Both the position numbers and the translations under genes were made by a program. A stretch of DNA of 63,988 nucleotides, counting the filler, from Octopus bimaculoides (lineage: Eukaryota), in assembly GCF_001194135.2 (NCBI RefSeq). It is 6 parts of 6 records of this genome, joined end to end, with 100 filler letters (N's around TTAATTAATTAA, not from the genome) between each part and the next. Parts side by side here need not be neighbours in the genome. Positions count along the whole stretch, not along the records: positions 1 to 23,569 come from NC_068985.1; positions 23,670 to 49,388 come from NC_069004.1; positions 49,489 to 55,694 come from NC_068993.1; positions 55,795 to 60,433 come from NC_068987.1; 2 more parts are not named here. One strand, given 5' to 3'. A model generated the notes under the pieces. It saw only the letters and a program-made list of their open reading frames with translations. It was not told the origin of the DNA and did not search any database. Of this stretch, positions 11,237-58,090 are shown in pieces (position 1 is the first letter of the stretch; the number at the start of each line of letters is the position of its first letter).

Positions 11237-11284
11237 TTAGTCACTGATGAAATCCCAACACTGGATTGAAACTAGCCTGGTTGA
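11237..11284 (+). ncRNA. Decayed minimal type I hammerhead-ribozyme motif (Penelope-like terminus); predicted inactive
   Basis: UUAGUCA-CUGAUGA-AAUCC(CAACACU)GGAUU-GAAAC-UA-GCC-UGGUUGA: intact core boxes, 5-bp stem II and 7-bp stem I with G-U pairs. The cleavage triplet is GCC instead of GUC. Confidence 0.6.
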
Positions 11285-12378
11285 TCTTTCTTTTTCTGTG
11301 CACAAATATGTTGCATATACAGTATAACCATTACAGTATTGACTAAAATCTGTAGATATATTTTGTAGTGCAATGTAATGTACAATTTAGTTTATTCGAT
11401 TTTTTTTATTAGAGCCCTTTATAAGGGTGATGTTATAATCAATGTCTCTATTAGGTTTTGGCCTTTGTGCCAATGACCATTAATCTTTTAGATCCTAGAC
11501 TATTCTTCTGATTCAAAATTTTCTTCTGCAGTTTTTCAACACATTTTGCAATGACATGATCAGCATATAAAATTCCCAGAGATCTTTTTGCACTCTTGTT
11601 TTAATACTCCCAAGAACTAAAATAAAGTTAACAGAATTTACAAGGGCAGCAGTAACTGAAAATAGAATTTTATGTAATGATTCACTTTTATATATCTCTC
11701 TCTTTCTCTCAATGTAATGTCAAAAGGAGGACACACGGACACACACTCATACACACACACACACAAAGATATATAATACTAGCAGTATAACCTGACTTTG
11801 TGCTGGTGTGACTTATTACGCCATCTACGATAAGTCTTGCTAGGTGAAAATCAACTAAAAAAGAAAGCCTTACAACGAAAAAACCCTTATGATGTAAGTA
11901 TGTTCATAATTCAAAAGACGATGAAATTAATAGGGAAAGTCTGAAGGCTGTTTTGCGTAACATTATTAAGCATACGTAAATTTCATCCGTCTAATTGGCT
12001 ATAGAAATGCTTGTGCAAAACAACTTTTTGCGCTGCCCTGATTATACATAGCAGGGTAATCCCTTTTTGCAGGAGCTAGGATGGCAATTTGTGATGAAGC
12101 AATTGCTGGCGATCTGTTGCTACACAGTTCTGCCAGAATTCTATCAGATTGGGCAGAAGATGTTGATGCACCATTTTGCATTATGTTCAAAGTAGCTTCT
12201 GGAATGTGGTGAATTGTTGCAGTCATTTTAAACCGGTTGCTGTCTTTCCCCAGCAAACTCTCTTCTTTGGAGGCATAATCTATGTATATATTAAACAGAA
12301 CAACAAAAGTTATAATAGATGGCAGGGTCGGTACTTTTCACATATCTGTAATTTTTCAGATTAACACCCGCACAATTA

Positions 12379-12501
12379 CCTAATCCTAACACTAACATTA
12401 AACCCTAACACTAACACTAAACCCTAACCGTAACCGTAACACTAATCATAACCCTAACCGTAACCCTCACCCTAAACCCTAACCCTCACCCTAACACCCT
12501 A
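12379..12501 (+). repeat. Degenerate telomere-like (CCCTAA/CCGTAA/CACTAA)n array
   Basis: About 20 hexamer-type units, e.g. aaccctaaccgtaaccgtaacactaa...accctcaccctaaaccctaaccc. Confidence 0.85.
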
Positions 12502-13654
12502 GTGAAAATCGTGGTATATTGACGAACATGAGTTATATTTTACTGAATGATTGTGTACTTGCACATGTATGCGTTTGAGAGAGCGAGAGAGGGGGAGAAA
12601 GGAATAGAGGTAGTTAAAGTTTTCTTATGACGGTTTCTCTTCACTGCCTATTACTTCATTAGAAATCTACGGATGCACATACGCACATAATAGAGAAAAA
12701 TGAAACAAATATGGATAACTTGCTCCAAAACACCACCGAGTGGGGAACACTTCTCAAAAATAACCTGCAGTTGTTTCCTTCAAAATTCCTACATGCTCGA
12801 AATGTACATACATCAAGGTATATTTGTAGAAAATTTCACGAAAAAATATTCATTTTCCTGGAAGTTAAGAGGAATTTAAGTGTAGTTTCCGAAAATTGTC
12901 CCCTACCCCCTCCCAAAACACTTTCACCGAAAATTTTTGTATATTTGGAATCTACATAATAAATAATATATGCATAGAAAATTTCATTAAAAAATATTCA
13001 TTTTTATGAAAGTTATGACCTTCCAAAGTCGGTGGGTACAACTCTGTAGTTATGCCACATTGACGAACATGAGTTATATTTTTGTGAATGATTGTGTTTA
13101 CTTGCATGTGTATACGTTTGAGAGAGGAAGAGGGGGAGAACGGGAGCAATGTGTATGTTGTTGTCACAGATCACGTATGTGTAGTTGTGTGTGTTTTTAC
13201 GTATCAATGTTATGAAAAATNNNNNNNNNNATGTGTAGTTGTGTGTGTTTTTACGTATCAATGTTATGAAAAATAGGTAAAGAATACTGAGAAGAAAGTT
13301 TAATCTATGACATTGTATGTATCACTTTCTCTGTTGAGCGCGTGTGTAAGAACGTTGTTCCAGGTAGAAAGGAAGAAATATAAAAGTTGCTAGAAACAAC
13401 AGCCAAATCTCCCTTAAATCACACAAGGTAAACGGAATTTTAAAAATCTAATTACTGCGCTGGAAAGTTCACATCGAGAAAANNNNNNNNNNCACAAGGT
13501 AAACGGAATTTTAAAAATCTAATTACTGCGCTGGAAAGTTCACATCGAGAAAATTCCATTGATGTAAAAAATTTTACGAAAAAGTGGAAAATGTGGATTT
13601 CTATAGATGCAACACACATACTCACAAATTCAGCTTTATAGATATAGATAGGTG

Positions 13655-13992
13655 CAGGTGTGACTGTGGTAAGAAGCTTGCTTTCCAACCACATGGTTCC
13701 GGGTTCAGTCTCACTGCTTGGCACTTTGGGCAAGTGTCTTCTACTATGGCCTTGGGCCAACTAAAGCCTTGTGAGTGAATTTGGTGGATGGAAATGTGTG
13801 TGTGCGTGCATGCTTTTATGTCTGTGTTTGTCTTCTACCACCACTCCTCTGAGTAGTTTGGCAAAAGAGACAAATAGAATAAGTACCATACTTAAAAAAT
13901 TAAGTACTGGTGGTGATTCATTCAACTAAAAAACTCTCCAAGACAGTGCCCCAGCATGGCTGCAGTCTAATAACTGAAACAAAAGATAAAAG
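13655..13992 (+). mobile_element. tRNA-derived SINE (family A, bipartite with internal microsatellite), CpG-decayed copy
   Basis: Head gtg(g)ctgtggtaagaagcttgc...ggttcagtc (A/B-box-like), core gcactttgggcaagtgtcttctac, internal (TG)n and 3' half ending ccagcatggctgcagtc...ctgaaaca. Confidence 0.8.
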
Positions 13993-14579
13993 ATATGACA
14001 GACTTCATTCTGTTTCAGTCTACTAAATTCACAAGGCTTTCATTGGCCTGGTGCTTTAGTAGAAGATATTTGCCCAAGATGCTATGCAGTGGCATTGAAC
14101 CTGAAACTATGTAGTTGGGAAGCAAGCTTCTTAGCCACACTTCCACATTTGTCCTTTGTCTGTCTATCTGTCAACTGTATCATTACTATCCTGCCGCTTT
14201 TCCCTCCACCAACTTTCTTCTGCATCTCTATCCTCCCCAATTCATGATTCATCAGCCATTACTCTTCAATTCTAACTTCTTTTACAGCTACAACCTGCCT
14301 CTTCATCCCTTCATCTTCTGTTCTTCATACAATCTTACAACAGCCTCACCCATCCACTTCTTATCACATGCCTTAAGAGACCACCTGAACACTTCATCTA
14401 TCTTTCTGCAGCTCCTACTCATCACTCTCTCCCTCCCCTACTAATTGTGTGTAGCCCTGCAGCTCTTCTTCAAGAACTTGTTCTGTCCCTATTCTCTCAT
14501 ACTCTAAACCCTCATCTTGTAGAAAGCCAATCCCCACATCTCTCTCGGGTTTTGTAGTTTTGCAAGCTGCGTAGTAGCA

Positions 14580-14765
14580 ACATTAATAATGCTGGTGGCA
14601 TGAAAGAAGCACCCAGTGGCTGGCAATAGGAAGAGCATCTAGCTACAGAAGCCATACCAAAATAGACATTGGAGCACAATGCAGTCTTTGGATGCATTGG
14701 TTCCTGTGAAACTGTCCAATCCATGCCAATATAGAACATGGATATTAAATGGTGATGATGATGAC
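14580..14765 (+). mobile_element. Short RTE 3'-end fragment with (GAT)n tail; similar ends at ~21300-21505 (+), 22400-22575 (+), 28350-28420 (-), 28785-28840 (+), 29415-29470 (-)
   Basis: Diverged match to the RTE terminus gtccaa(c)ccatgc(t)agcatggaa...ttaaa(c/t)gatgatgat seen at 2186-2235 and 15463-15520. Confidence 0.7.
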
Positions 14766-15462
14766 ACATGCAAATACACTTATTTTTAATAAACAGAAAG
14801 TTATGAAAGGTTCATTATTCATGAAACTCTAGGTCCTTGAGTTACTTTCGTAAATTTCTACTGATTAAAACTACTATAAAAAATATACACATTAATTTGT
14901 TTCTCCTGTTTGTTCTAATATGTACACATAACTATCTTATCACCATTGTTTAACATCCACTTCTCCATTCTCACATGGGTCAAATGGAACTTGTTGGGGC
15001 AGATTTTCTATGGTCAGATGTCCTTCCCATTGTCAATTCTCAACTGTTTCCAAGCAAGTTGATATTTCCCTTTGGCCAGATGTGTTTTTCACAGAAGGCT
15101 GAAAATAAGCACATGTATGTGACATTGATGTTCATTTACAGCCGTAGCATCATAAGGGTCCGTATACACACACAAACAAACATTCCTATAAGGGATACCT
15201 CACTCCTAGTAGTCTTACAGTTTCTCTGAACACCAATACAGAATTACTAAGACCTCACTCTGTAGTTAGATAATCATTTATCTGTCCTTTTTACAAATAT
15301 TGTTTTTGTCTTGTGTGTCTAGTAACTCTTCTCGCCGATCTAGACAGCTGGTCATATCAGTTGTTTAGTCATTGATGACAAACTTGTGCAGCATGTATTG
15401 AATGGTAATTGTTGTGCTCACAAACAACCTGCGACACCTACCTACACACACATACACTTATG

Positions 15463-57385: not shown

Positions 57386-57545
57386 CATAAAACAATATAT
57401 TCTGTTTTTATATATTTATATCATATAGTGTGTGTGCGTGCGTGCGTAAGTGCGCGTGCGTGTATGTGTTTGTGTGTGTGTGTGCGTGTGTGTGTGTGTG
57501 TGTGTGTTTTGTGTGTGTGTGTATGTGGATGCGAATGTGTGTTTG

Positions 57546-57577
<32 letters not shown>

Positions 57578-57582
<5 letters not shown>

Positions 57583-57870
57583 TGGTTGTCTACTCCTTAT
57601 GCAGAGTTTGACCACCTCCTGTACCTACACATTAGCCCCATCATGGCAACTGATGTGGCTTTTTAAACCAGACAATGTTCTGAAAAGACACTGAAGTAGA
57701 TTGCATACCCGATTTGGGCCACCAAGAGCTGCATATAAGTTCTGATCTTTGTAGATCTTAAAATGTCTTTTGAGGCCCCCGTTAGATTTGCAAACCTTCT
57801 GGCATACACTGCATTCAAATGTGTGCACAGATATATAAGCAGAATATTTGGTGGCGGTTCGTTTTCCATG
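57578..57870 (-). mobile_element. 3' end of a LINE (probably RTE type) encoding two decayed C2H2 zinc fingers
   Basis: ORF 57625..57828: FECSVCQKVCKSNGGLKRHFKIY and CNLLQCLFRTLSGLKSHISCH. It terminates in gtagacaaccacc directly into (TA)n, and no splice context was seen. Confidence 0.6.
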
Positions 57871-57882
57871 GGTTCGCCAATC

Positions 57883-57914
<32 letters not shown>

Positions 57915-58006
57915 TGATATAAATGGCAAGACAAGAAAAGAATGAAAGAGACCTCGATTTTATGCAAATAGAGGAATTTATCTCTAAATATAATATGTAA
58001 CAATTA

Positions 58007-58090
58007 TTCGGTAGCCTTGATAAAACTCCGAGTTTCGGATGTCGGATTGGAAACCCACTCCGGCATCTCTTCAGTTATCGGGCCATCGAA
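58007..58090 (-). ncRNA. Candidate type I hammerhead ribozyme (GUU triplet) in a Penelope/retrozyme-like short repeat (~57915-58100)
   Basis: Minus strand reads UUCGAUGGCC C GAUAA-CUGAAGA-GAUGCCGGAGUGG(GUUU)CCAAUCCGACAUCC-GAAAC UCGGA GUU^UUAUC AA GGCUACCGAA. It has 5-bp proximal and 9/10-bp distal stem I, a long stem II and a near-palindromic ACUCGGAGU stem III. Confidence 0.8.

Follow-up and report, generated by a model that had tools for sequence, protein, structure and literature searches.

What is a hammerhead motif with its core boxes in swapped order doing in an octopus genome? The DNA in question (the window) is a 63,988-nucleotide (nt) sequence from Octopus bimaculoides made up of six stretches of a 2.34-Gb, TA-rich genome, and the five hammerhead-like motifs that a sequence-only reading had flagged in it fall in three of these stretches. 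The core boxes of all five were found where they had been reported, and the arm sequences are indeed unrelated between loci. Each flagged locus is a copy of a dispersed repeat, and the five motifs fall into four families: two belong to A (58.0 and 27.8 kb) and one each to B (26.8 kb), C (26.4 kb) and D (11.2 kb). A first look returned 2,676, 701, 3,784 and 104 candidates for A, B, C and D, respectively, figures that should not be read as copy numbers. The motifs are genuine, and their number in the window is not out of the ordinary. The family C locus is unusual and the other four are ordinary; this locus with swapped boxes, which had been treated as a side note, is the one unusual feature. 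Taking the account as a whole, we consider it probable that the window holds 5'-truncated insertions of Penelope-type repeats, that A and B (and likely D) are ends of ORF-bearing elements, all three families having ordinary type I hammerheads, and that C is a decayed copy of an ORF-less unit; the RNA of this unit is predicted to form a split-core hammerhead of six helices, which likely cleaves the transcript of the element at GUH.

Block order and covariation of the family C motif

The family C copy, with the predicted parts of its motif, lies in the window as follows.

26214..26593, minus strand: family C, 5'-truncated, decayed copy of a unit of about 745 nt of the Penelope-like element (PLE) type, free of open reading frames (ORFs), with the predicted split-core permuted hammerhead
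26504..26551, minus strand: 5' part of the motif, with the helix IV 5' strand (26548-26551), hairpin V (26509-26547) and the helix II 5' strand from G10.1 (26504-26508)
26474..26503, minus strand: I-II interaction helix (5' strand), followed by the site block, with the helix III 16.x strand, the predicted cut between 26482 and 26481, and the helix I 1.x strand
26427..26473, minus strand: 3' part of the motif, with the helix II 11.x strand and GAAAC (26463-26472), the helix III 15.x strand, the interaction-helix 3' strand (26446-26452), the helix I 2.x strand, CUGAUGA (26431-26437) and the helix IV 3' strand (26427-26430)

In the family C consensus the site block comes first, GAAAC second and CUGAUGA last; stem I has 8 bp and stem III 6 bp, both exactly in register. 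The permuted order noted for the 26.4-kb locus is real, but the GUA that follows GAAAC there (the GAAAC-N5-GUH spacing is present at four of the five loci, as had been said) is not the predicted site; that of the family lies upstream of GAAAC and is mutated here. GAAAC-N5-GUA was rejected as a cut site in C, as no stem I fits beside CUGAUGA. The window copy is changed at positions 16.2 (G16.2), 15.3, 1.1 and 2.4 and is predicted to be inactive.

Read from 5' to 3', the split-core motif consists of the helix IV 5' strand, hairpin V, the helix II 5' strand with G10.1, the interaction-helix 5' strand, helix III/GUH/helix I, the helix II 3' strand/GAAAC/helix III, the interaction-helix 3' strand, helix I/CUGAnGA and the helix IV 3' strand. 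Because the 5' strand of helix II lies upstream of the site block, A9 and G10.1 are not contiguous. Helix IV is formed by the bases that follow A9 together with the 5' flank, and hairpin V stands between helix IV and G10.1. As judged from the consensus sequences, the layout is a C-S-G circle (CUGAnGA, site and GAAA blocks) opened at A9/G10.1 and closed by helices IV and V.

The core letters CUGAnGA, GAAA and NUH are present in the consensus of families C, E, K, F, G and I, in part imposed by the search pattern. That block-order pattern (GTH-N13-17-CGAAAC-N15-28-CTGANGA) had 7,229 matches in the genome compared with 592 for reversed controls, and the families that match it are many, with differing stem sequences. 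For the comparison of stems, 17 families were chosen by eye (14 of 44 clusters and 3 single copies), the remaining 30 clusters being dropped as chance, truncated or unclear. Across these hand-picked families the three stems, I to III, keep in register with the core and covary. Stem I reached a value of at least 4.5 in 15 of the 17 own pairings versus 16 of 242 swaps between groups, and the upstream stem II in 14 of 17 versus 38 of 242, its mean (4.88) exceeding the maximum of 500 shuffles (4.24). The G10.1-C11.1 pair is present in 16 of the 17 families and A15.1-U16.1 in all of them. The upstream stem II also covaries within the C group (GAAGG/CCUUC, GAAGAA/UUCUUC, GAAGAG/CUCUUC and GAGCG/UGCUC). 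The motif is pseudoknotted; minimum-energy folding, which did not recover it, is not counted as evidence. A K-turn between helix III and the interaction helix was considered and rejected, its signature being found in 7 of 27 sequences and absent from C, E, F and I.

Elements that carry the motif and truncation at the predicted cut

From the matches described here, the split-core layout appears as a feature common to three kinds of element: Naiads and non-LTR (long terminal repeat) elements of the restriction-enzyme-like (REL) type, both with the layout in the 3' untranslated region (UTR), and ORF-less units. By eye, family K corresponds to the 3' end of Naiad_Obim and Naiad_Ovul in their published consensus sequences; it lies downstream, on the same strand, of 16 of 30 Naiad reverse transcriptase (RT) matches; the Naiad hallmarks (N-terminal GIY-YIG, CxC, RT with a DKA motif) were found for this family. 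In three loci a REL-type ORF is followed, 360-385 nt on, by family F, and family I begins just past the stop codon of a similar ORF. Full-length relatives of these ORFs (756-1,391 aa) carry RVT_1, and two are named after R2DM. We take the REL-type (R2-group) elements that carry the motif to be those labelled 'HERO'. R2 has a 5' ribozyme of the hepatitis delta virus type; unlike R2, the elements described here, whose clade is assigned without a tree, carry a hammerhead-type motif in the 3' UTR. In a metagenome set, 59 REL-related loci were found, of which 38 were examined and 27 had at least 250 nt of room downstream. A match was obtained in 14 of these 27, and 11 of them, with a stem II of at least 5 bp within 500 nt, carry the split-core layout; the 11 layouts lie 300-490 nt past the protein match and comprise 10 distinct sequences, and the reverse strand gave none.

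Family F tandems are 276-356 nt apart. About 140-170 nt upstream of the family F site in L192 and L222, a TATA-like box and an initiator-like TCAGTC lie inside the REL 3' UTR, a pair that is possibly a 3' promoter driving the next copy. A 305-residue open frame adjoins an F copy (L199:1782-2696, minus strand); we presume that it holds a J-domain-like stretch.

The units of family C and of E, a young relative of it, measure about 745 nt, lack an ORF and have a tail, inverted 5' copies and (TA)n flanks. They form partial tandems with a period of 737-751 nt in six loci and 669 nt in a seventh, with one ribozyme motif per non-coding monomer and a GTAAGT donor-like site at the tandem junction. Copies of family E (L141-L170) are 97-99% identical, so the partner enzyme would have been active recently; cephalopod Naiads have been reported as long inactive. 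The Naiad hallmarks named above were not found in C, a unit without an ORF. Families C and E resemble Naiads (Craig et al. 2021, PMC8557442, as far as that text goes) in having (TA)n as target, truncated 5' ends, partial tandems, inverted 5' copies and a tail; family C differs from them in having no ORF, and the link to Naiads was seen for K. PLE RT ORFs that belong to another clade and are nearly identical to one another are found in three loci (L342-L344), and the motif was not matched near them.

C-type copies show a roughly 4- to 10-fold step in truncation at the predicted cut. About 60-70 C/C3 copies have a 5' end that borders on (TA)n and is no more than 30 nt from the GAAAC anchor, and the first 40 of them were taken as the sample. 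This end falls at -2 to +11 from the predicted cut in 36 of the 40 and at -20 to -3 in 4 (binomial p 3e-10 versus uniform). With flanking anchors, 11 minus-strand loci were counted at -63 to -33 and 66 at +8 to +38, and anchor retention was 10, 10 and 14 of 30. RNA sequencing of another organism (about 6% of each of three runs), searched with families E and F, gave reads from both strands and no pile-up of molecule ends, and was uninformative.

Several points weigh against a catalytic split core in C. The hand-picking of the 17 families makes the covariation figures lean upward, helix IV is weak compared with its control (8 of 17 versus 70 of 242), and a script recovered hairpin V adjacent to helix IV in only about 7 of 17. 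Intact copies of C are scarce, 3 of 30, compared with 29 of 30 for E (full core) and 8 of 30 for K. Family C was not found downstream of 50 Naiad-RT-like matches, and no partner for C, E or G was found downstream of these or of 30 matches to a C-terminal GIY-YIG family, with the sole exception of one C2 copy (L373) after the 3' end of the latter. The C/C3 starts are spread over 14 nt with no peak at the cut (8 of 40 within 2 nt on either side, p 0.31). The type I family A has no step at its own site, as 15 of 31 loci inspected by eye start upstream and 16 at or after it, none beyond -14; the truncation signature is thus left with no positive control, and structure alone can shape truncation. 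The accessible text of Eckert et al. (2023, PMC10085705) assumes that block C cannot be interrupted. Finally, in C, E, J and their relatives the bases after A9 can alternatively form a type-SGC stem II with one extra C.

This last pairing raises the alternative that C is a plain type-SGC hammerhead, with stem II right after CUGAnGA and one extra C, and that the upstream pairing is an alternative or off state. The SGC descriptor was passed by 6 of 30 C loci, and the linker of 1-6 nt from stem I to stem II fits the 'typically three' given in the text at hand (PMC10085705). The stem II strand directly after CUGAnGA, which forms 4-5 bp in C, C2, E, E2 and J, reaches 4 bp in just these 5 of the 17 families, all of the C group, and 0-2 bp in the other 12; the upstream strand supplies the canonical G10.1-C11.1 pair and covaries even inside the C group. 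We regard a plain SGC hammerhead as improbable.

The step itself could also come from a conserved, hammerhead-derived but non-catalytic structure, such as an RT-binding or priming signal, by stalling of the RT or from a nearby transcription start. Family A, with its apparent truncation edge at stem II instead of at the site, would fit such a structure, as would the many full-length copies that extend through the site. It is harder to reconcile with catalytic letters that recur with covarying stems in unrelated hosts (a recurrence partly imposed by the search patterns), or with the few 5' starts at hairpin V, which lies upstream; moreover, at the step the RT would already have copied the partner strands, so that stalling would be unexpected there. 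A non-catalytic origin of this kind is in our view unlikely, and we favour a split-core fold that likely cuts.

The type I families and the rest of the window

The other flagged loci in the window are copies of three families.

57915..58306, minus strand: family A, the 3' end of a PLE that has an endonuclease; its type I hammerhead (58014-58082, GUU site after 58024) is intact
27715..27884, both strands: family A, two truncated ends in a head-to-head fold-back (27715-27816 minus, 27814-27884 plus), with no CUGAnGA box
26668..26831, minus strand: family B, likewise the 3' end of a PLE that has an endonuclease; type I hammerhead at 26745-26820, site after 26757, stems mismatched in this copy
11202..11323, plus strand: family D, an old repeat whose type I hammerhead is minimal; stem I at 11237-11243 / 11278-11284, CUGAUGA at 11244-11250 and GAAAC at 11268-11272

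The consensus sequences of A, B and D have the type I order CUGAnGA, stem II, GAAA, stem III and NUH with an open stem I, and the type I descriptor gave 22 matches in 30 A loci, 5 in 30 B loci and 1 in 10 D loci. Three foldable hammerheads had been proposed in the window; among the flagged loci only the 58.0-kb copy of A passes the stem I/II/III descriptor. The B copy has mismatches in stems I and II. The family D site is GAAAC-UA-GUC with a palindromic 6-nt stem III, and the window copy, which reads GCC at 11275-11277, is predicted to be inactive. By their sequences, the window copies of B and D are decayed members of type I families. The 27.8-kb locus, described as one truncated inverted copy, turned out to hold two truncated A copies that face each other head to head. 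Two D copies are paired in this way on C1; no ORF link was found for family D, in which the 10 copies compared share at most about 240 nt. A type I family with a CUGAUGAAGGC... core accounts for roughly half of the first 100 type I matches on C1, often in head-to-head pairs.

Longer copies of A and B (L022, L028, L034, L036, L037 and L053) translate, upstream on the same strand, into what we take, by motif reading, to be the C-terminal half of the PLE GIY-YIG domain. This ORF lies upstream of family A in L022 and L028 (Pfam GIY-YIG E 0.027, below the cut-off), and four longer copies of B run into the GIY-YIG C-terminus. A (TA)4 run is found near the fixed 3' end of 24 of 30 A and 17 of 30 B copies, versus 288 of 5,162 background windows (5.6%). 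The 5' ends are ragged in both families, and inverted 5' (upstream) copies occur in 7 of 30 and 12 of 30. This insertion habit, with a fixed 3' end at a microsatellite, a ragged 5' end and inverted copies, is as described for PLEs in the portion of PMC8557442 available. The evidence points to A and B being 5'-truncated 3' ends of ORF-bearing PLEs, not retrozymes.

The proposed link to Penelope-type elements and (TA)n targets is thereby borne out. So is the nearness of (TA)n runs: the four loci with the N5 spacing lie 34-101 nt from a (TA)5 run, a nearness (within 100 nt) that has a background of 13.7%; for D the distance is 8,962 nt. No PLE ORF had been recognised in the window, and tblastn with five PLE fragments gave no match there. 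The idea of multiple non-autonomous families survives in part, since A and B are ends of ORF-bearing PLEs and C and its relative E are, to judge by sequence, the only families here that look non-autonomous. The opposite case, that all hits are simple termini of catalogued Penelope families, nearly applies, A and B being PLE 3' ends.

Could all families be short non-autonomous retrozymes amplifying via circular monomers? C and E, as ORF-less tandem units of about 745 nt, would suit such a model; retrozymes are described in coral, mussel and axolotl (PMC7229834), and their derivation from PLEs has been proposed (bioRxiv 10.64898/2026.07.22.740005), both according to the text available. C and E share with metazoan non-LTR retrozymes, as those sources present them, a non-coding unit, one ribozyme per monomer, tandem copies and a probable dependence on PLEs. 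They differ in unit length (about 745 nt versus 150-450), in forming partial tandems instead of arrays and in having a permuted instead of a type I ribozyme (PMC7229834, same limits), so that neither the type I ribozyme nor the 150-450 bp monomer of a retrozyme is found in C/E. For A and B the model is refuted by the GIY-YIG ORFs, ragged 5' ends and inverted copies described above, and no multimer arrays were seen among 70 A, B and D loci. As an explanation for all families we give it very little credence.

A, B and D share with the type I and minimal hammerheads of endonuclease-bearing PLEs a type I order near the 3' end and a short palindromic stem III suggesting dimers, and nothing substantial sets them apart from the descriptions in the available parts of PMC8557442 and PMC7229834. 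They represent a known arrangement, and their novelty is limited to new octopus families; by themselves, the type I families are ordinary. A very abundant C-terminal GIY-YIG PLE family (6,378 candidates) has, in L357, L359, L361, L362 and L372, a conserved 3' end 0.7-1.35 kb past the GIY-YIG match, with CUGAYGA and GAAA boxes in a possibly decayed arrangement.

The density of motifs in the window is ordinary for this genome. The type I pattern had 40,594 matches in 2.34 Gb, about one per 61 kb, versus 7,439 for reversed-pattern controls, which agrees with a genome-wide system of several independent families far above chance. A strict type I descriptor, run against shuffled controls as had been suggested, gave 7 matches versus 0.6 across sample stretches that were taken at even spacing and total 343 kb. 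When the descriptor covered every one of the six block orders, the window gave a single match, the 58-kb copy of A, and 0.03 per shuffle (30 shuffles). An Rfam scan of the window returned 95 matches at E of at most 1, mostly microRNA models on TA repeats, and no hammerhead.

The exon at 40005-40421 on the minus strand encodes half of a Forkhead domain, the first (Pfam E 9e-13), which we take to be FoxO-like. The C, B and 27.8-kb insertions belong to this stretch too and are found 12-14 kb downstream, with C and B on the strand of the gene; they may be inside an intron of it. Broken RT fragments of long interspersed nuclear elements (LINEs) lie at 283-1529, 16230-16796, 59064-60031 and 61363-62478 (with RVT_1 matches for 283-843 and 59064-59666), and a DDE_Tnp_1_7 transposase fragment at 7363-9413; none of these is PLE-like.

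Known ribozymes and a proposed mechanism

Type SGC (HRIMA-1 and variants) and type CSG are the non-circularly permuted hammerheads of Eckert et al. (PMC10085705), whose accessible text places type SGC in metatranscriptomes only, in the genome of no known organism, and gives cleavage rates of 0.004-0.19 per min for SGC/CSG ribozymes. According to the same text, the split-core motif shares with type SGC the order site, GAAA, CUGAnGA, the short linker from stem I to stem II, all core letters and a helix joining the far ends of stems I and II. Type SGC keeps the stem II strand on CUGAnGA, whereas the split core has it upstream, with helices IV and V at the A9/G10.1 junction; block C is thus broken in the split-core families (with a possible second register in C, C2, E, E2 and J). 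The split core is chromosomal, in thousands of copies and known here from sequence alone, whereas SGC ribozymes have measured cleavage (PMC10085705, as available). No description of the split-core layout was found in the open-access literature. We regard it as a variant layout in a known ribozyme class.

Naiad_Ovul is flagged 'HHR_half_core' in the supplement of Craig et al. (PMC8557442), whose text, as far as available, reports no canonical hammerhead in Naiads and leaves half cores unfolded. By eye, five nematode Naiads of the 12 shown (Naiad-1 and -3_Nbra, Hcon, Hpol and Asuum) have 3' ends in C-S-G order with all stems pairing. Block C is intact in these five, which makes them type CSG, and a sixth is cut off at the site (supplement of PMC8557442, in the part available). 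Type CSG has so far been validated from only two metagenomic sequences. When two type-CSG copies are set head to tail, their inner halves together give the octopus form, which would offer a simple route to the split core.

In the mechanism that we propose, cleavage at GUH would give the template its 5' end, and the RT would reach this end or stop just short of it. The products would stay paired via four helices (II, III, IV and the interaction helix), which should favour re-ligation, so that a tandem transcript could be converted into a circle of about 745 nt by cleavage and re-ligation. Copying round the circle more than once would yield partial tandems, and a putative PLE RT/GIY-YIG enzyme acting in trans would insert the unit at (TA)n. 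We have more confidence in the structure than in the circle. We are evenly divided on the broadest claim, that this is a seventh natural hammerhead topology, opened in the core at A9/G10.1 and with two extra helices, an active cut-and-rejoin ribozyme with thousands of copies in animal genomes that was derived from type CSG by tandem duplication and adopted by Naiad, REL and ORF-less parasites.

If true, the published assumption that the CUGAnGA block and stem II are inseparable falls, and the non-circularly permuted ribozymes move from anonymous metatranscriptomes to animal chromosomes. The puzzle of Naiads 'lacking' hammerheads would be removed. Two unrelated retrotransposon classes would gain a common RNA-processing step, and with it the circular-template model of tandem insertion by PLEs could be tested on an RNA of 170 nt.

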